In this document: one piece after another, positions 1,167-9,715 of the stretch
Numbering within the stretch: position 1 is the stretch's first letter
How the letters are laid out: every line of letters starts with the position of its first letter
Source of the DNA: Cereibacter sphaeroides 2.4.1
GTDB lineage: Bacteria > Pseudomonadota > Alphaproteobacteria > Rhodobacterales > Rhodobacteraceae
NCBI RefSeq assembly: GCF_000012905.2
Contig: NC_007493.2
Span: 120,001 to 152,000 of the forward strand
Direction: 5' to 3'
DNA length: 32,000 nt
Position numbers and translations under genes: made by a program
The notes under the pieces: model-generated
Told to the model about the DNA's origin: nothing
Database searches by the model: none
What the model saw: the letters and a program-made list of their open reading frames with translations, nothing else

Positions 1167-1199
1167 GAGCGCCGGCAGGAGACCCTCCTGCCGGCGCTC
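1167..1199. terminator. Perfect 15-bp-stem GC hairpin between convergent hslU and the MBOAT gene (possible bidirectional terminator, no clear U-tract)
   Basis: GAGCGCCGGCAGGAG-ACC-CTCCTGCCGGCGCTC was read directly. It lies in the 50-nt gap between two stop codons. Confidence 0.5.
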
Positions 1200-1213
1200 C
1201 GCGGGCCTTCGGG

Positions 1214-2746
1214 TCAGAAGGCGAAATAGAGGAACTCGGCGGGCGGACTGCCGAAGATGCGCAGCAGGGTGATGCAGAGCACCGCCCCCACCATCAGCCC
1301 GTGCGTCGGCGAGGGCTTCCAGTAGAAGGCGGCGAAACGGGCCCGCTCGCGCGCGGGTGCCTTCGGCGCGGTGTGGGCCTTCAGCCCCACCCATTCCTGC
1401 GTGTTCGGCAGCGCCCAGATGATGAAGAGCCCGAACAGCACCACCACCGTATCGCCGAGATAGAGATAGCCGCCGTGCTCGCCCATCCCGGCGAGGCCAC
1501 GCACCACCGTCAGGGCGTCGGTGAGGGTGGGCGACTTGAAGAAGACGAAGCTCACCGTCACCGCAAGGAAGGTCACCAGCACCTTGACCGGCGACAGGAG
1601 CGACGAGAGCGGCGCAGGGATCCGGGCCCGTCCCGCTGAGGTCGCGCGCCAGCCGTGGTTCGCGACCAGCATGGCCCCGTGCAGCAGCCCGAAGACGATG
1701 AACTGCCAGCCCGCCCCGTGCCAGACCCCGGCAAGGCCCATGGTCACCAGCGTCGGGAAAGCGAGCATCACGAGGAAGGGCAGCACCTGCGGCTTGCGGG
1801 GATTCCAGACCGGCTGGCCGCGCTCCATCCGCCGGCGCATCACGGTCTTGGTGATCGGGTTGTAGAGATAGGCCGTCAGGAAGCGCGTGAGCGTGATGTG
1901 CCAGCGCGACCAGAATTCGATGATCGTCTGCGACTTGTAGGGCGAGTCGAAGTTGAAGGGCAGCAGGATCCCGAACATGAGCCCGAGGCCGATGGCCATG
2001 TCGGAATAGCCAGAGAAGTCGAAATAGAGCTGGAGCGCGAAGGCCACCGCGCCCCGCCAGGCGAAGGCGAGATAGGCGGCCTCGCCCCCCGCGGCCAGAT
2101 CCCAGAGCGGCTGGGCGAGTGGCGCCAGCGTGTCGGCCATGCCGATCTTCTTGAACAGTCCGAAGCAGAAGACGGTGAAGCCCAGCACCAGCTTGGCCTG
2201 ATCGATGCGGAAGGTCTCGTCCCGCTCGATCTGGGGCACGATCTCGCGGTAATGCACGATCGGCCCGGCGATCAGCTGCGGGAAGAAGGTGATGAACATC
2301 GCATAGCGGATCGGGTTCGGCCGCCCGATCCGGCCCTCGTGGCAATCCACCAGATAGGCGATCTGCTGGAAGGTATAGAACGAGATCGCGAGCGGCAGCA
2401 GGATGTGCGGCACCGGCACGTCCGCCGCGGTCAGGGCGTTCAGGATCTCGACCAGGAAGCCCGCATATTTGAAGAAGCCGATGGCCGCGAGATTGGCGGC
2501 CACCCCCGCAAGCAGGAGCCACCGGCGCGGCGTCTCGACCAGCATGATCCCGAGCAGGTAGTTCAGCCCCAGCGAGATCAGCAGCATCGGCAGGAACGCG
2601 ACGTTCCACCAGCCGTAGAAGAAGAGCGAAGCCGCAACCAGCCAGCCCACGGCCCAGAGCTTGTTCGGAAGCCTGCCCAGGAGATAATAGCCGAGAAGGC
2701 TCAACGGCAGGAAGGCGAACAGGAACTCCGGGCTGTGGAACAGCAT
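1214..2746 (-). CDS. MBOAT-family membrane O-acyltransferase (AlgI/DltB-like) with extra C-terminal helices ending in FLYFAF
   Basis: The N-terminus MLFHSPEFLFAFLPL is typical of AlgI/DltB. MBOAT motifs FWSRWHITLTRFLTAYLYNP and GVWHGAGW are present and the protein is polytopic and hydrophobic. Its ATG overlaps the upstream carrier-protein stop (TGATG). Confidence 0.9.
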   Translation of the reverse strand: MLFHSPEFLFAFLPLSLLGYYLLGRLPNKLWAVGWLVAASLFFYGWWNVAFLPMLLISLGLNYLLGIMLVETPRRWLLLAGVAANLAAIGFFKYAGFLVEILNALTAADVPVPHILLPLAISFYTFQQIAYLVDCHEGRIGRPNPIRYAMFITFFPQLIAGPIVHYREIVPQIERDETFRIDQAKLVLGFTVFCFGLFKKIGMADTLAPLAQPLWDLAAGGEAAYLAFAWRGAVAFALQLYFDFSGYSDMAIGLGLMFGILLPFNFDSPYKSQTIIEFWSRWHITLTRFLTAYLYNPITKTVMRRRMERGQPVWNPRKPQVLPFLVMLAFPTLVTMGLAGVWHGAGWQFIVFGLLHGAMLVANHGWRATSAGRARIPAPLSSLLSPVKVLVTFLAVTVSFVFFKSPTLTDALTVVRGLAGMGEHGGYLYLGDTVVVLFGLFIIWALPNTQEWVGLKAHTAPKAPARERARFAAFYWKPSPTHGLMVGAVLCITLLRIFGSPPAEFLYFAF

Positions 2747-2991
2747 CAGGCGGCCTTCTTGTCCCGGATCAGGGCCACGAAATCACCGACGTTCTTCAGA
2801 TCTTCGAGTTCGGACGACCTGAACGAGACGCCGAAGCGCATCTCGGAGGCGACGACGATGTTGATGTGGTTGAAGCTGTCCCACTCGGCCACGTCATGCG
2901 CGGAGAGGTCGGGGGTGGCCACCAGCTCGGGATCGTCGAACACCTGCCGGAGGATGGAGGTCAGGCCGTCGTAAATCTCGGGGTCGGTCAT
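2746..2991 (-). CDS. Small acyl/peptidyl carrier protein (DltC-like, phosphopantetheine attachment Ser in EWDSFNHI)
   Basis: 81 aa and acidic, with a DS(F/L) carrier-protein motif. GAGGAG lies upstream of the ATG. It is translationally coupled to the MBOAT. Confidence 0.85.
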   Translation of the reverse strand: MTDPEIYDGLTSILRQVFDDPELVATPDLSAHDVAEWDSFNHINIVVASEMRFGVSFRSSELEDLKNVGDFVALIRDKKAA

Positions 2992-3051
2992 GAAGGTCTC
3001 CTCGGGTTCGTCGTCGGTCGCCTGCGGCGGAGCGCGCCGCCGGAGGCAGGG

Positions 3052-4965
3052 TCAGTGGGTCACGCCGCGCTCGGTCAGCCGGATATGCGGCGGGGGCGGC
3101 GGCGGCACAGCCAGATCGAGCCGCCAGAGCGCCGCAAGGCCGTCGGCGCCCGCCGGCGCGAAGCCCAGCCGCGGGAAGAGATCGGCGACCATGCCGTTCT
3201 TGGGCGTCGGCCGGTAGCAGCCGACGACCGTCGAGGCGCCGGCCTGCCGGGCGGCGCGCGCGATGACGGCGGCCACCGCCTCCTCGACCCTTCGTCCCAG
3301 CACGCGGCAACTCATGAGCCAGGTGTCCACCTCGAACAGCTGGCCGCCCTCCCCATCGGGGCGCAGCCGGCCCAGCACCACGGAGACGATGCCGTTGTCG
3401 CCGAACCGATCCTTCAGCCGCACGCAGAAGGTGAGCATCCCCGGATCGCCGATCATCGCCCCCACCTCTGCCTCGGTGTAGCGCCGGGTGGTCAGGTTGA
3501 ACTGGTTCGTCTTGTTGATGAGCTGCGTCACCCGCACTAGATCGACGGGCTGCACCGGCCCCACCTGCATCTCCATGTCGAGCCCGGCGAGGAAGCTCTC
3601 CATGTCGGGAGCCACCACCTCGAGCTGGCGCCGCGCGGCATTGGCCGCATATTGCTCGGCCCGCAGCGCGTCGTCGGGCGTGTAGCCCACCGCCTCGAAG
3701 AGACCGGCGGCGGCAAGGCAGCGGATGTAGGTTTCGGGCTCCTCGGGCACTTCCGGCACGGCCACGGCCGGGAACTGTTCGCGCAGAAGCGCCCGCTCGG
3801 CCGGGTTGTCGTCGAAGAAGACCAGCGCCTCGAGCCCGAGGTTCAGCTCCTGTGCGATGCGCTGCAGGCCCTGGCCCTTGTCCTCCCAGTTGGCCACGAA
3901 GGCCGCGAAGTCCGACCGGCGCAGCACCATCTCGGGATGATCGAAGGCGGCGAGCGCGCGCTCGGGATCGTTCTTCGAGCTGACGGCAAGCAGGATGCCC
4001 CGCTCGCGCAGCGCCCGGCAATAGAGCTGGAAGGCCTTGAAGGCCTCGCCCCGCGCCGAGCCCTCGCCGATCACGATCCCCTCGATGCCGTCGTCGCCGA
4101 TCACCCCGCCCCAGAGCGTGTTGTCGAGATCGAGCACCAGCACCTTGCGGGTCAGGCCGCGCATGGCGGCGAGGATCCGCGCCACCTGATCGCCGAACCA
4201 CGGCCCCGCCGCAGGGCTCACATGCTGCTTGGCATGGAGCCACATGAGCCGGTCCTGCAGCGCGTCGAGCCCTTCGGCCTCGGCCGCGGCGACCGGATCG
4301 AGGATCAGCACCCGCTCCTCGCGGGCGGCGCGGATCAGCCGGTGCTGCATCTCGGCCACCATGGCCCGGCGCGCGGCGGGGATCAGCCGGTCGAGATGAC
4401 CGAAGACCGGATCGGTCGTCGGCACCGGAAGCTGCTGGATCACCGCGGCGCCTATCGCCCGAAGCGCGCGCCAGCGGTGGACGGTCTCGGACAGGCTCGC
4501 CTCGAGCGCCGCCTCCACCTCATCGGGCGGGGTGGCCAGCGGCAGTTGCGGCACGAGATCCGTCTCGCAGGAGCAGATCAGCACCGCATCGGGCCTGAAG
4601 GCCGCCAGTTCGGAGGCGGGATCGAGGATCGCCTGCCGCCACTGACCGTAGGGCGGCACATGAACCTCGAGCGCGAGGCCGCGGCGGAGCGCGCCCACGG
4701 TCAGACCCGGCACCAGATGCTCGACGGTGAAGGAGCCCAGAAGCGCGAGCCGCAGCCGCGGCACTTCGGGCGGGGCCTTGGCCGTGCGGAGAGCCCGTTC
4801 GATCCGGGTGGTCTGGAGGAAGTCGATGCGGTGCCCGGCCAGATGCCGCAGGGCGCGCCAGGCCTCGGGCGGATCGTCGGCAGCCCGTGTGCGGGCCCGG
4901 GCCAGATCGCCCTCGAAATCCGCCGCGACCGGCAGCCAGTGCAGTTCAAGCGGTTTGCTTTTCAT
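3052..4965 (-). CDS. FkbH-like / HAD superfamily subfamily IIIC protein with C-terminal GNAT-like region
   Basis: The signature LVLDLDNTLWGGVIGDDGIEGI (DxDxT HAD motif in the FkbH context) is present, and the 637-aa multi-domain length is typical of the family. A strong SD (GGAGGTGGAG) precedes the ATG at 4965. Confidence 0.85.
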   Translation of the reverse strand: MKSKPLELHWLPVAADFEGDLARARTRAADDPPEAWRALRHLAGHRIDFLQTTRIERALRTAKAPPEVPRLRLALLGSFTVEHLVPGLTVGALRRGLALEVHVPPYGQWRQAILDPASELAAFRPDAVLICSCETDLVPQLPLATPPDEVEAALEASLSETVHRWRALRAIGAAVIQQLPVPTTDPVFGHLDRLIPAARRAMVAEMQHRLIRAAREERVLILDPVAAAEAEGLDALQDRLMWLHAKQHVSPAAGPWFGDQVARILAAMRGLTRKVLVLDLDNTLWGGVIGDDGIEGIVIGEGSARGEAFKAFQLYCRALRERGILLAVSSKNDPERALAAFDHPEMVLRRSDFAAFVANWEDKGQGLQRIAQELNLGLEALVFFDDNPAERALLREQFPAVAVPEVPEEPETYIRCLAAAGLFEAVGYTPDDALRAEQYAANAARRQLEVVAPDMESFLAGLDMEMQVGPVQPVDLVRVTQLINKTNQFNLTTRRYTEAEVGAMIGDPGMLTFCVRLKDRFGDNGIVSVVLGRLRPDGEGGQLFEVDTWLMSCRVLGRRVEEAVAAVIARAARQAGASTVVGCYRPTPKNGMVADLFPRLGFAPAGADGLAALWRLDLAVPPPPPPHIRLTERGVTH

Positions 4966-5686
4966 CGCTCTCCACCTCCTCAGCCAGATGAATGTCCTGC
5001 ACCGTCCCGGCGGGGGGCGGTGCGTCGAGCGCGGCGACGAGCGCCTGCGCCACGCGTTCAGGGGACAGGAACCTGCCTCCGGCGTCGGCCCGGGCGCGCT
5101 CCAGCAGGCGCGGGTCGAAGGCGCCGAGCATCGGCGTCTCGACGAAGCCGGGGGCCACCACGCTCACCCGCAGCCCCGCGGGCCCCAGTTCGGCGGCGGC
5201 CGCCGCGAGCAGGGCGCGCAGCGCCGCCTTCTGCGCCACATAGGCGGCCATGTGGCGGGCCACGGGCGGCTCGGACGCGGCCGACAGGACGGCCAGCACA
5301 TGCCCGCCGCCCGCGCGCCGCCACCAGAGCCGCCAGGCCGTGGCGATCAGCGCGTGACAGCCGGCAAGCGCCGCCGCCTGAAGCGCCAGATCCTCGCCCT
5401 GACGCCCGAAGGGCGCCACGAAGGGCGCGGGCCAGGCGCAGAGCGCGAGTGACGCGGGCGGCTCGGGAAGTGCTGCCAGCGCGGTCTCGAGCGCTGCGGG
5501 ATCCTGAAGCGGCAGCGCCAGCGGCTCGGCCCGTCCGCCCGCCTGCGTGATCTCGGCGGCAAGGGCCCGGGCCCGTCCGGCCCCCGCGCCGTAGCCGACC
5601 CACACCGGGTGCTGCCGGGCCGCGATCCGGCAGAGTGCGCCACCGATGGCGCCGCTGCCGCCCGTCACGAGGAGCCCACCGGTCAC
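4946..5686 (-). CDS. Short-chain dehydrogenase/reductase (SDR)
   Basis: Rossmann motif VTGGSGAIGGA and catalytic YVAQK (YxxxK). It has a GTG start that overlaps the upstream stop (GTGA), and its 3' end overlaps the FkbH-like start by 20 nt. Confidence 0.85.
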   Translation of the reverse strand: MTGGLLVTGGSGAIGGALCRIAARQHPVWVGYGAGAGRARALAAEITQAGGRAEPLALPLQDPAALETALAALPEPPASLALCAWPAPFVAPFGRQGEDLALQAAALAGCHALIATAWRLWWRRAGGGHVLAVLSAASEPPVARHMAAYVAQKAALRALLAAAAAELGPAGLRVSVVAPGFVETPMLGAFDPRLLERARADAGGRFLSPERVAQALVAALDAPPPAGTVQDIHLAEEVESDEKQTA

Positions 5687-6087
5687 TCGGCCGCCTCGCG
5701 GGCAGACCGCGGTTCGGGCAGCAGGGTCATGGCCTCGCCCTCGGCGATGCGCCGGCCGCCGGCCGAGATCGTCAGGCGGATGAGCCGGATGCCGAGAGGC
5801 GGCGTCTCGTGCTTCACCTCGGCCTCGAGCTGCGCGCGTTCGCCCACGAGGAGCGGCCGGCGGAACTTCATCGTCAGCGATTGCCAGACGCAGCCATGCC
5901 CCGGCAGCGCCGTGCCGAGCAGCCGGGACACTTCGGCGATCAGCAGGCCGCCATAGACGATGGGGCCGTCGAATCCCCTTTCGCGGGCGAAGAAGGTGTC
6001 GAAGTGGATGGGATTGTCGTCCCCGCTGATGGAGCGAAAGGCCTCCATCCGATCGGTGGTCACGGTGAAATCGAACGCTATCGTCAA
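5683..6087 (-). CDS. MaoC-like (R)-hydratase/dehydratase hotdog-fold protein
   Basis: The conserved SGDDNPIHFD motif and hotdog-length core are present. I favour the in-frame TTG at 6087, which is preceded by GAGG at 6-nt spacing. The ORF-track start at 6246 adds about 50 basic, low-complexity residues across an AT-richer promoter-like stretch. Confidence 0.75.
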   Translation of the reverse strand: MTIAFDFTVTTDRMEAFRSISGDDNPIHFDTFFARERGFDGPIVYGGLLIAEVSRLLGTALPGHGCVWQSLTMKFRRPLLVGERAQLEAEVKHETPPLGIRLIRLTISAGGRRIAEGEAMTLLPEPRSAREAAE

Positions 6088-6364
6088 ATTGCGCCTCGAA
6101 TCGAATTCATGTCGCAGCGAAGCCGCCGCAAGTCGTTGATCAAAAAAACGGAGCTGCAAATGCGGGCGCAGCCGGGGGTAGAGCCTATAGGAAGCAGGAT
6201 ACCACGAGCTTTGTTCCCCAATCGAACTTTTTTTCCTCCGCCTCAAGAAAGCGCTCGCTCTGCGGCCAAGGGCGCGTATCTTTCCCGGAGTGACCCGGCG
6301 CCGATTTGTCGGTGGGCCTTTCCTCAGGCCGGGCGCGGTTTGTTGAGATTGAAGGCAGCTTGGG

Positions 6365-7279
6365 ATGAGAAGTTATATTCTGTCCGCCGCCGCAGGCATG
6401 GTCCTGATGGCAGGTGCACTAGCGGCGGCCTTCACGGCGGCTGCGGCGATCTGGCCCGACAAGATGCCGCCGCCCGCGATCTCGGGCAGCATCGCGACCG
6501 ATGAGAAGCTGAAATATCTGCGCGACCGCGGGCGGGAGCCGGTGGATGTCCTTGCTATCGGGTCCTCCATCACATGGAAGCATCTCGACGGCGCGCCGTT
6601 CGACGGCCGGGTGGGCAATTTCGTGAACGGCGGCACGGCCTATCTTCAGGTGCATGAGATCCGAACCTTCACCCGCTTCTATCTGGACCTCTATCCCCGG
6701 ATCTCGCAGGTGGTGATGCTGAGCGCGCTGCCCGACTACGGCACCTGCGCGGGAGAAGGGCGGATCATGGATCTCGAGGATGCAGCCTCCTACGTCCGCG
6801 GCCGTATGCCGGAAGCCTGGTTCTACATGCGCTATTTCGCCCCCCTCCGCTACGTCCTGCAGGCGCGGCGGCGGTCCGAGCGGCTGAAGCCCTACGATGC
6901 CTTCGGCTACTGGCTGGACCGGCACGGCACGACGCCCTCGATGCTGCCGACCGAGGTGGGCTACGACCTGCGCTACGACGAGATCGCGCTCGATCCCGCC
7001 TGCCTCGAGGCGCTCGACGGGCTGAACCGCGATCTCACGGCGCGGGGCGTGACCTTCACGCTGGTGATGACCCCGGTCGCGCCGCGCTATTCCGACCTCC
7101 ACCCGGCCACCACGCGGGCGACCGAGCGGATCGAGAGCTTCGCGCGCAGCCGGGGGATCCGGCTTATCGACTTCTTCGGCGATCCTTCCTTCGAGGACGC
7201 CGATTTCTGGGATGCCTTTCACATGCAGTGGCCGGCAGCCCGCCGACTGTCGCGCGAGGTGGCAGATACACTTCTCTGA
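6365..7279 (+). CDS. Membrane-anchored SGNH/DltD-like (AlgX/AlgJ-like) acyl-transferase/esterase candidate
   Basis: An N-terminal TM anchor (ILSAAAGMVLMAGALAAAFTAAAAIW) is followed by a block-I-like LAIGSSIT, an FVNGG element and a C-terminal DAFH (DxxH) motif. It is divergent from the MBOAT operon. Confidence 0.6.
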   Translation: MRSYILSAAAGMVLMAGALAAAFTAAAAIWPDKMPPPAISGSIATDEKLKYLRDRGREPVDVLAIGSSITWKHLDGAPFDGRVGNFVNGGTAYLQVHEIRTFTRFYLDLYPRISQVVMLSALPDYGTCAGEGRIMDLEDAASYVRGRMPEAWFYMRYFAPLRYVLQARRRSERLKPYDAFGYWLDRHGTTPSMLPTEVGYDLRYDEIALDPACLEALDGLNRDLTARGVTFTLVMTPVAPRYSDLHPATTRATERIESFARSRGIRLIDFFGDPSFEDADFWDAFHMQWPAARRLSREVADTLL

Positions 7280-7357: not shown

Positions 7358-8131
7358 ATGAAGGCCGTATTGCTTGCGGGTGGCTATGGAACGCGGTTGA
7401 GCGAGGAGACGGGCATCGTCCCGAAACCCCTCGTCGAGATCGGCGGTCGGCCGATCCTGTGGCACATCATGAAGATCTACGCCGCGCACGGGATCACCGA
7501 TTTCGTGATCTGCTGCGGCTACAAGGGTCACATGATCAAGGATTATTTCCTGAGCTACTTCCACCGCAACAGCGACATCACGATCGACGTCCGCTCGAAC
7601 CAGATCGAGCTGCACCGTCCCGTGTCCGAGCCGTGGCGCGTGACGATGGTCGATACCGGGCTCGAGACCATGACCGGCGGGCGGATCAAGCGCATCCGCG
7701 AGCATATCGGCGACGAAACCTTCTGCCTGACCTATGGCGACGGTGTCTCGGACATCGACATCGGCAGCCTCGTGGCCTTCCACAAGGAGCAGGGCGTGGC
7801 AGGCACCGTCACCGCCGTGCGACTGCCCGGCCGCTTCGGCGCGCTCGACCTGTCGGAAGGCACGCGGGTCAACCGGCTGCGCGAGAAGAGCATGATGGAC
7901 GGCCAGACCATCAACGGCGGCTTCTTCGTCCTCGAACCTTCGGTCTTCGACTATATCGACGGCGATGCCACGGTCTGGGAGGAAGAGCCGCTGCAGGGCC
8001 TCGTCCGCGACGGCCAGCTCGCGGTCTACCGCCACGAAGGCTTCTGGCAGAACATGGACACGCTGCGCGACAAGACGCTGCTGCAGGGTCTGTGGGAGAA
8101 GGGCAAGGCCCCCTGGAAGATCTGGGACTGA
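7358..8131 (+). CDS. rfbF: Glucose-1-phosphate cytidylyltransferase
   Basis: [41 protein letters not shown] and its 257-aa length are collinear with RfbF. Confidence 0.9.
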
Positions 8132-8139
8132 CCGTCTCA

Positions 8140-8163
8140 CCCCGCCGGCCTTTCCCGGCGGGG
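8140..8163 (+). terminator. GC hairpin after rfbF (9-bp stem, no U-tract)
   Basis: CCCCGCCGG-CCTTTC-CCGGCGGGG starts 9 nt after the rfbF stop. Confidence 0.35.
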
Positions 8164-8366
8164 ACCGTTCCGGGGCCTCGTATCTGACCTCTTCCGGCGG
8201 CTACGGCGGCCCCCGCCCGGCTCTGGGCAGAGCATGAGCAGCAGCGGCCGGCGCGCCTCGGGTCGGCCTTTGGATCAGGTGAGCCCTCGGCATCCGCCTC
8301 CGGGCATCGGCGCATCCGTGGCCGGCACGCGAGCCCGCGCCCGGCCGCGGAGCCCGAGGCCCCGCT

Positions 8367-9374
8367 CTACCACTGCAGGCTCTCGGCCTCGCGGTTGGGC
8401 AGCACCGCCAGGAACCGCAGCGGCATGGCGGGCACGAGCCCCGGGTCCAGCGCCGCGAGCTTCCAGGTGAGCGAGAGCGTCGGCACCCGGCCCTGCAGGA
8501 GCGCGCGCAGGAAGAGGTAGCTGTAGGCGCGGCGATAGCGGCGGATGCGGTCGGCCACCGTCCGGCGGTCGGACGCCGTCAGCGAGAGCCGCCGGCCGAC
8601 CGTGTGGAAGAACATCAGCATGTAGCCGGTGCGGTCCACCACCTTGGTGGATTTCCAGTCGAACGCGTCGAAATAGACGTTCACGCCCCGGCCGCAGAGC
8701 ACGTTCATCTTCCAGGACACGACGGTGCGCGCCCCGGCCGCGATCAGCGACAGCCAGAAGAGCTGGTCCTCGCCGGCGTTCCGCAGCCGCGGGTCGAAGC
8801 GCAGCGTCTCGACGAAGCTCTGCCGCACCACGACCGTCGAGGTCTGGCTGAGGTAGGTATCGACCGACGCCGCCATGATCGAGGGCTGGTCGAAGGCCAG
8901 GATCGGCGCCTCGGCATCGAGCACGGTGACGCCCGCGTGCCGCTCCTCGCGCATCCGGCGCAGGGCGGGGGTGCGCTCGAAATAGGTGATGTCGTCGTCG
9001 GTGCGCTGGTGGTCGCAGAAATGGAAGTCGTAGCCGCGCGCGAGCAGATCGAGCGCATCCGCGAGATGGGTGGGCTGCCAGATGTCGTCGGAATCGAGGA
9101 AGGCCACATGGTCGAAGCCCTCTGCCGCCACGGCATCGAGCCCCGCGTTCCGCGCGGCGCCGGGGCCGCCGTTCTTCTGGGCGATCAGCCGCACGGGAAC
9201 CTTGCCCTGCCGCCCCTCGACCTCGGACCGGGCGGACACGGGGGACTCGTCGTCGATGACGAAGACGGTGAGGCTATGGCCTTCGGGAAGGATCTGCCCA
9301 TCGACCGAGTCGAGCGCGCGAGAGAGGATCCCCGCCTCCCGCTGATAGAAGGGGATGATGACTGCGGTTCTCAT
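8367..9374 (-). CDS. Family 2 glycosyltransferase
   Basis: The GT2 N-terminus MRTAVIIPFYQRE, VFVIDDESP and a DSDD (DxD) motif are present. I chose the internal ATG at 9374 (AGGAC upstream) over the track start at 9437. Confidence 0.85.
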   Translation of the reverse strand: MRTAVIIPFYQREAGILSRALDSVDGQILPEGHSLTVFVIDDESPVSARSEVEGRQGKVPVRLIAQKNGGPGAARNAGLDAVAAEGFDHVAFLDSDDIWQPTHLADALDLLARGYDFHFCDHQRTDDDITYFERTPALRRMREERHAGVTVLDAEAPILAFDQPSIMAASVDTYLSQTSTVVVRQSFVETLRFDPRLRNAGEDQLFWLSLIAAGARTVVSWKMNVLCGRGVNVYFDAFDWKSTKVVDRTGYMLMFFHTVGRRLSLTASDRRTVADRIRRYRRAYSYLFLRALLQGRVPTLSLTWKLAALDPGLVPAMPLRFLAVLPNREAESLQW

Positions 9375-9715
9375 GCTGAAAAGTCCTGAAGCAAATGTCT
9401 CTGTCAATGAATCTCGGGGCCGCGGCGGGGGCGCCACAGCCGCCCAGCGTCCGAACAGCCGTAACGGCCATGTTATCCAGAGAGCCGGGGCCGAGACAAA
9501 CGCTTTTCCGCCTCGCCCATGCGCCGGGCCGAGGCTCCGCCCAGAAGGATGGCGCGCTCCGGGTCAGGGCCCCGACCGATACCACTGTGCGCCTGCCGGG
9601 CGCTCGCCGGATGAGCCGCCCGGCCTGCCATCCCGCCCGGCGCCACACCGAGGCTTTTAAAGACGACCGTGACGGGCAAAGAGGCCGGGAGTGCAGCATC
9701 GCGGTTAGTCGCTGT

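Follow-up and report, generated by a model that had tools for sequence, protein, structure and literature searches.

A putative free-standing lactate-starter module coupled to a DltB-like acyltransferase in Cereibacter sphaeroides

Which acyl group a small carrier protein hands over to a membrane acyltransferase is the question raised by a compact group of genes in Cereibacter sphaeroides 2.4.1, which lies in a stretch of 32,000 nucleotides (NC_007493.2, positions 120,001 to 152,000; the window, in whose own numbering positions are given below). A tight row of intact genes on the minus strand encodes, in this order, a MaoC-type hotdog protein, a short-chain dehydrogenase/reductase (SDR), an FkbH protein, an acyl carrier protein (ACP) and a DltB-like membrane-bound O-acyltransferase (MBOAT), and a divergent gene next to the row encodes a membrane-anchored SGNH-fold protein (Table 1). 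A preliminary description of this DNA had proposed that the cargo is a three-carbon (C3) unit made on the carrier, namely glyceryl, pyruvoyl or lactyl. The comparison with related sequences described here supports the C3 interpretation, and the choice among the three acyl groups is suggested by analogy. With a probability that we put at about 60%, the first four genes may represent a free-standing dehydratase–ketoreductase–FkbH–ACP (DH-KR-FkbH-ACP) "lactate starter" module, which acts together with a Dlt-like pair for export and transfer and by which a lactyl ester would be placed onto an envelope glycan.

The analogy is drawn from a polyketide synthase (PKS). In Burkholderia sp. FERM BP-3421, the producer of FR901464/spliceostatin, a tblastn search reached a large PKS gene (Bsp3421_RS01755) on plasmid p1, which is preceded by a regulator gene and a trans-acyltransferase (trans-AT)-like gene. 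Pfam analysis of the N-terminus of this PKS located a MaoC_dehydratase domain at residues 10–98, an adh_short domain at 280–467, an FkbH domain at about 705–990 and a PP-binding domain at 1156–1217, followed by a ketosynthase (KS) domain, so that the same four families as in the window (MaoC, SDR, FkbH and carrier) stand in the same order. The preliminary description had noted that FkbH is partnered in the FR901464 loader with an unusual dehydratase and a ketoreductase, which this domain order bears out at the sequence level, and as the PKS starts with a MaoC domain, the unusual dehydratase is itself a MaoC-type hotdog. The window hotdog is homologous to that of the PKS N-terminus (31% identity, E 2e-9), with the catalytic D..H motif aligned, and the catalytic residues of the two FkbHs are identical. 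The two systems differ in that the loader is part of one PKS polypeptide with a KS after the carrier, whereas the window has four proteins, with an MBOAT after the ACP, and in that the window FkbH, unlike that of the loader, is a long form with FkbH_N. In a pathway-reconstruction paper, the FkbH loading type of the FR901464 class is listed as giving D-lactate-ACP, with citation of the FR901464 cluster paper (PMC7901079). In a tree of the FkbH core, the PKS-linked FkbHs were placed on long branches outside all of the cassettes and, therefore, the tree is uninformative on a recent shared origin of the PKS module and the cassettes. The BryA loader of bryostatin is of the same design as the FR901464 loader.

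The four window genes are closely joined to one another and to the MBOAT gene. As read from the sequence, the stop codon of the MaoC gene overlaps the start codon of the SDR gene in GTGA, the SDR and FkbH genes overlap by 20 nt with GGAGG upstream, and the stop codon of the ACP gene overlaps the start codon of the MBOAT gene in TGATG; the FkbH and ACP genes are near but non-overlapping, with a gap of 60 nt that contains a GAGGAG ribosome-binding site. The positions given earlier were thus confirmed, as was the arrangement of the hotdog, SDR and FkbH as discrete, coupled genes adjoining a free-standing ACP, with overlaps at MaoC/SDR and SDR/FkbH. For all eight genes of the neighbourhood, dN/dS against two congeners was 0.12–0.28 (0.25 for the hotdog) and, by this measure, they are under purifying selection.

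The FkbH is the only one in the whole genome and is 98% identical to C. sphaeroides protein entries. It consists of FkbH_N at residues 72–265 and a TIGR01686 region at residues 272–603, which covers profile positions 2–320 of 323, and its score on TIGR01686 was 283 bits (285 bits in the whole-genome profile search) against a curated cut-off of 146.65 bits; PDB entry 3slr matches residues 61–429. The HAD catalytic motifs (DxDxT, S, K and DD) are all kept, together with a Ser-Cys-Arg motif in the C-terminal domain. For alignment, we used four PKS- or nonribosomal peptide synthetase (NRPS)-linked FkbHs found by tblastn in plasmids: that of a Streptomyces FabH-FkbH-ACP set (tetronate-type), the FERM BP-3421 PKS domain (FR901464-type), a zwittermicin-type one from B. 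thuringiensis and a hydroxymalonyl-type one. Residues D279, D281, T283, S330, K363, D385 and S552-C553-R554 were invariant between the window FkbH and these four, and also in 22 close homologues. The mechanism described for the family proceeds from phosphoglyceryl-S-enzyme to glyceryl-S-enzyme and then to glyceryl-ACP (PMC9057759; PMC7489565). An S-enzyme intermediate exists for the FkbH family (PMC9057759), and we infer that it is formed on the Cys of S552-C553-R554 in the C-terminal domain. On account of its family membership and conserved catalytic residues, the window FkbH is proposed to load a glyceryl unit from 1,3-bisphosphoglycerate onto the ACP.

The two enzymes that could modify such a unit retain their functional motifs. 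In the hotdog, the hydratase-2 motif FRSISGDDNPIHFDTFFA is intact and can be read as F-RS-I-S-G-D-D-N-P-I-H-x5-A, including the catalytic Asp and His, and its nearest solved structures are PhaJ (5cpg and 1iq6) and HTD2 (3ir3). Its likely start is TTG 6087, which has GAGG just upstream and yields a protein of 134 aa, matching the homologues (124–155 aa); the longest open reading frame, which starts at TTG 6246, is probably over-extended, and TTG 6087 was favoured. The SDR contains TGGSGAIG as the TGxxxGxG cofactor motif, the catalytic Ser in LSAAS and YVAQK as the YxxxK motif, and its nearest PDB entries are FabG (3v2g) and AntM (7nm7). Orthologues of the SDR are rare, with 16 protein clusters at an identity of at least 47% among 5.8 billion proteins and a sharp drop thereafter, and every orthologue context examined was a MaoC-SDR-FkbH-ACP row. 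Among 400 sampled Alphaproteobacteria, the C. sphaeroides copy alone was found at E 1e-20, and the next-tier relative that was checked is the ketoreductase of an aryl-polyene-type ACP-dependent cluster.

To place the window genes among their relatives, we examined 80 loci that surround relatives of FkbH in species genomes, together with several metagenome contigs, the counts being over 82 loci. The ACP gene was directly beside the FkbH gene in about 76 of them, and the cassette included an MBOAT in about 50, with none nearby in about 30. Most cassettes consist of FkbH-ACP-MBOAT without the dehydratase and reductase and, therefore, FkbH alone would charge the carrier and the hotdog and SDR would be a tailoring add-on. 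Separate MaoC and SDR genes were confined to the FkbH clade closest to the window. In other cassettes, gene clustering detected a MaoC-SDR fusion protein of about 510 aa; such fusions were present in 11 FkbH-ACP(-MBOAT) cassettes and were colinear with the PKS didomain (E 1e-57 to 1e-15). The split and fused types never occurred together in one locus, and the sole locus that appeared to have MaoC only was found to carry an SDR gene two genes away, plus radical-SAM genes. In the FkbH tree, the split type formed one clade with a single member lacking the pair, and the fused type was scattered. The lone pairless row of the split clade belongs to a Ferrovibrio genome, in which the flanks are identical and the hotdog, SDR and SGNH genes are absent, representing an apparent loss. 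Taken together, the hotdog and SDR look like an add-on, both optional and mobile, to a system whose core is FkbH-ACP-MBOAT-SGNH. The cargo loaded by FkbH would be altered by this add-on, and an optional paired add-on is the pattern expected of enzymes that edit such a cargo. Two Ferrovibrio loci (L003:9383-13781 and L001:8387-14923) share the same flanks, one having MaoC-SDR-FkbH-ACP-MBOAT-SGNH and the other FkbH-ACP-MBOAT only, and these genomes provide a natural pair for the function of the add-on.

On the transfer side, the MBOAT, which is the only one in the whole genome, matched the DltB profile TIGR04091 at E 1e-50 with 173 bits, which is below the equivalog cut-off of 375, and DltB structures 6bug and 8jem matched it at E 1e-24. 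The catalytic WHG histidine is aligned between the two (vWHGagW in the MBOAT and fWHGitW in DltB), and the C-terminus of the MBOAT is ...EFLYFAF. For the ACP, the best NCBIfam ACP match (E 1e-8) is below the curated cut-off of the model, and the Pfam PP-binding match is weak (E 0.0077). The 304-aa partner has an N-terminal membrane helix, and 13 homologues all share its G66-S67-S68, N88-G89 and D283..H286. Its AlphaFold model (pLDDT 87) led in Foldseek to SGNH carbohydrate esterases and DltD (3bma, 6o93 and 6pfx), and on the basis of this modelled fold we propose it as a candidate DltD/PatB-like final transferase. Among the six genes of the acylation unit, profile searches detected no AMP-binding domain of the kind that a DltA-type adenylating ligase would have.

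Two more families without a Pfam match (about 330–350 aa) accompany FkbH-ACP-MBOAT in the comparison set: cluster c5 (loci L005, L008, L011, L014, L023, L027, L048 and L077) and cluster c7 (loci L022, L034, L039, L070 and L076). A G-x-S nucleophile motif near the N-terminus, which is GNS or GDS in c5 and c7, and an invariant C-terminal His are present in partner subfamilies c3 (the family of the window protein), c5 and c7, and D-x-x-H is invariant in c3 and c5. Profile comparison indicated no relationship between c3 and c5 (probability 0.4%) and was only suggestive for c3 and c7 (58%). The c5 and c7 families are probably alternative SGNH-like partners, as judged from these motifs.

The cassettes were found to vary further. 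The FkbH-ACP loci with no MBOAT within 10 kb include many from Acetobacteraceae, for example, L047, L051, L062 and L069, and some MBOAT-less loci adjoin ABC-transporter or glycosyltransferase genes. A cassette from Thalassospiraceae (L024:4358-15218) encodes FAD_binding_4, SDR, MBOAT, MaoC, FkbH, B12-binding radical-SAM, ACP and SPASM radical-SAM proteins, which suggests a more heavily tailored, perhaps C-methylated, cargo. On pSymB of Sinorhizobium meliloti (L088:4907-10788), genes for a VOC protein, an MBOAT, a 409-aa protein, an ACP and an FkbH-like protein annotated as a HAD family hydrolase lie beside RkpR-type capsule export genes, and a cassette of this type recurs in about 40 Sinorhizobium plasmid records. 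The 409-aa protein is annotated as a TonB-dependent receptor and stands at the position of the SGNH partner and, therefore, the annotation may be wrong.

The distribution of the genes within the genus indicates which of them belong together. Among other genomes, FkbH was present in 3 of 5 from the same genus and in 5 of 24 from the family. In one congener (L102; G405:C12:26000-43000), the stretch corresponding to positions 1180–7252 of the window is cleanly absent, so that hslU directly abuts rfbF-GT2. The absent stretch comprises exactly the MBOAT, ACP, FkbH, SDR, MaoC and SGNH genes, and because these six are absent together, they are gained or lost as a block and behave as a single functional unit. 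Both rfbF and GT2 are kept in that congener, and their occurrence independently of the six genes is consistent with the two acting in the synthesis of the acceptor and not of the donor. Accordingly placed on the acceptor side, rfbF is a candidate supplier for, and GT2 a candidate maker of, the acceptor glycan. In three congeners, the rfbF-GT2 pair is conserved beside hslUV irrespective of the presence of the acylation unit, and rfbF is syntenic in Rhodobacter sp. CZR27. In the window, positions 7358–9437 encode the CDP-glucose synthase RfbF and the GT2 enzyme without a CDP-glucose 4,6-dehydratase or other dideoxyhexose genes.

Table 1. Positions of the acylation genes and their neighbours in the window
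Feature	Position	Strand	Length and profile match
MaoC-type single-hotdog (R)-specific dehydratase/hydratase	5683-6087	-	134 aa; PF01575 E 3e-14
Classical SDR	4946-5686	-	246 aa; adh_short E 9e-18
Long-form FkbH (FkbH_N + HAD-IIIC + C-terminal Cys domain)	3052-4965	-	637 aa; TIGR01686 283 bits
Dedicated acyl carrier protein	2746-2991	-	81 aa; attachment Ser in WDSF
DltB-like MBOAT	1214-2746	-	510 aa; PF03062 E 6e-20
Membrane-anchored SGNH-fold protein	6365-7279	+ (divergent)	304 aa; Pfam search without match; fold from AlphaFold model
rfbF, glucose-1-phosphate cytidylyltransferase	7358-8131	+	TIGR02623 423 bits
GT2 glycosyltransferase, converging	8367-9437	-	PF00535 E 4e-17

In the mechanism that we propose, FkbH would take 1,3-bisphosphoglycerate, form a covalent S-enzyme intermediate, drop the phosphate and pass the glyceryl unit to the phosphopantetheine of the ACP. 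The MaoC hotdog would remove water across C2–C3 of glyceryl-S-ACP to give enol-pyruvoyl and then pyruvoyl-S-ACP, and the SDR, acting as an alpha-ketoreductase with NAD(P)H, would reduce the 2-oxo group of the latter to give lactyl-S-ACP. The dehydration and reduction steps are suggested by the analogy to the PKS module and by the pattern of gene linkage. For the PKS domains, the formation of pyruvoyl and then lactyl has reportedly been proven. The DltB-like MBOAT would take over the C3 acyl group of the ACP and move it through the inner membrane, and the SGNH-fold protein would then attach it as an ester to an envelope glycan, in whose synthesis rfbF and GT2 may take part; membrane passage and esterification are both proposed from Dlt homology and gene linkage. 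As the hydroxy isostere of D-alanyl, the group carried by DltB, lactyl could plausibly fit a DltB-like tunnel. The fact that the dehydratase and reductase always travel together, whether split or fused, was also counted in favor of lactyl.

Several points weigh against this mechanism. The hotdog is closer to PhaJ-type enoyl-CoA hydratases (71 bits) than to the PKS hotdog (43 bits), and in pairwise BLAST the window SDR showed no significant match to the ketoreductase of the FERM BP-3421 PKS, with generic SDR similarity only. The SDR having no specific likeness to the PKS ketoreductase, the split hotdog and SDR may go back to a recruitment separate from that of the fused or PKS form. We know of no MBOAT-linked FkbH cassette that has been studied, so that every chemical step is an analogy, and of no O-lactyl ester that has been documented for a glycan of Cereibacter.

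An outcome that we consider unlikely, although it deserves to be kept in mind, is that FkbH does provide the cargo as a C3 unit, in a form other than lactyl: glyceryl may remain unchanged, pyruvoyl may be the final form if the SDR is otherwise engaged, or the SDR may oxidize the unit to 2-hydroxy-3-oxopropionyl/hydroxypyruvoyl. As the majority of related cassettes have no more than FkbH-ACP-MBOAT, the MBOAT can evidently accept glyceryl-ACP as a donor; the generic character of the window SDR agrees with such an outcome, and so does the oxidation, rather than dehydration, of glyceryl-ACP in methoxymalonyl pathways (PMC7489565). However, the oxidizing enzymes of those pathways are of the 3-hydroxyacyl-CoA-dehydrogenase and acyl-CoA-dehydrogenase types, not an SDR and a hotdog. 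The hydratase motif of the hotdog is intact, an SDR invariably accompanies the hotdog or is fused to it, as is the case in the PKS module that forms lactate, and both proteins are under purifying selection. The hotdog and SDR might instead act like PhaJ and FabG/PhaB, giving an (R)-3-hydroxyacyl cargo, for example, 3-hydroxybutanoyl, which is a known decoration of proteobacterial polysaccharides, with the FkbH-like protein in another role. The nearest solved relatives of the two proteins, which are PhaJ-type (R)-enoyl-CoA hydratases and FabG-type reductases, would agree with this, but we consider it improbable, because FkbH keeps both catalytic centers and has the ACP as its near-universal neighbor, the cassettes without hotdog and SDR would have no acyl source, the six-gene unit includes no acyl-CoA:ACP transacylase or ligase, and the order MaoC-SDR-FkbH-ACP is that of the PKS loading module.

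The C3-ACP could also supply a starter or building block to a pathway elsewhere that makes a lipid, polyketide or tetronate, with the MBOAT as a mere neighbor, in line with the characterized FkbH systems, all of which feed PKS/NRPS or tetronate pathways, and with the related FkbH-ACP loci that have no MBOAT nearby (about 30 of 82). The genome leaves very little room for this. In the assembly searched (4.6 Mb, 7 contigs, 100% complete), there was no PKS, no NRPS and no condensation domain; one FabD-type AT was found, and the three KS genes, which are of fatty acid synthase size, each lie over 0.9 Mb away from the window. No FabH-like tetronate synthase gene was present next to the window genes. 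The earlier statement that the window has no KS, AT or PKS/NRPS module thus holds and, for PKS and NRPS, extends to the whole genome. As to a co-conserved PKS/NRPS partner encoded elsewhere, which the preliminary description had named as an argument against its own proposal, the genome has none, and a KS-like match within 10 kb occurred in just 1 of the 82 loci. Moreover, the ACP and MBOAT genes overlap, and the MBOAT and SGNH genes were lost together with the loader genes in the congener. A lactyl cargo transferred by the Dlt-like pair is the reading that we prefer.

All parts of the proposed system come from known families, and in the literature searched we found no description of a discrete lactate-starter module with a Dlt-like export pair in a Gram-negative bacterium. 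Full-text literature searches for FkbH/HAD-IIIC with MBOAT, lactyl/glyceryl, polysaccharide/glycerate or teichoic found no glycan-linked FkbH. To our knowledge, the D-alanylation of teichoic acids is the only case of MBOAT-mediated, carrier-protein-fed transmembrane acylation that is understood in detail, and FkbH chemistry is known only from antibiotic pathways. If the surface glycan does carry a lactate or glycerate ester, the locus would join Dlt-type acylation to FkbH chemistry and offer a genetic route to rare hydroxy-acid decorations. The host is a genetically tractable model organism, and the genome of the same genus that naturally lacks the six genes is a ready comparison. A broader and more tentative idea is that an envelope glycan of a Gram-negative bacterium is O-lactylated here from a carrier protein, which would be the first such case and a charge-neutral equivalent of the D-alanylation of teichoic acids; the donor would be derived on the carrier from a glycolytic acyl phosphate via the DH-KR-FkbH module. 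The six-gene unit might then serve as a within-genus on/off switch that decorates the rfbF/GT2 glycan, and glyceryl or other C3-derived esters might be installed by those sister cassettes that lack DH-KR or that include genes for radical-SAM, VOC or methyltransferase proteins, all of which would make up a family of tunable surface acylations.

Among known systems, AlmEFG, which attaches glycine to lipid A in Vibrio cholerae, is similar in being a carrier-protein-fed small-acyl decoration of a Gram-negative envelope glycolipid. It differs in that AlmE is an adenylating ligase, AlmG is a lipid A acyltransferase of the cytoplasmic face and not an MBOAT, and there is no tailoring on the carrier. 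The tetronate and methoxymalonyl-ACP pathways (FkbH/OzmB and Tmn16-type) share with the window an FkbH with a dedicated stand-alone ACP and the first step as described (PMC9057759; PMC7489565), and the FkbH of the Streptomyces FabH-FkbH-ACP set is 37% identical to the long-form window FkbH over 90% of its length. These pathways continue with FkbK/FkbI-type dehydrogenases and a methyltransferase, or with a FabH-like tetronate synthase, whereas the window has a hotdog and an SDR, and the product would go to an MBOAT. Compared with the Dlt pathway (DltA, DltC, DltB, DltX and DltD), which performs the D-alanylation of teichoic acids, the window unit has no DltA ligase, and its carrier would be loaded from an acyl phosphate by the HAD-type FkbH, with the cargo tailored on the carrier; its host is Gram-negative, without teichoic acid, and its MBOAT is below the DltB equivalog cut-off. 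In both systems, a small carrier feeds a DltB-like MBOAT in which the catalytic His is kept, the membrane-anchored SGNH-fold partner resembles DltD, and the proposed cargo is, like D-alanyl, a three-carbon 2-substituted propanoyl group.

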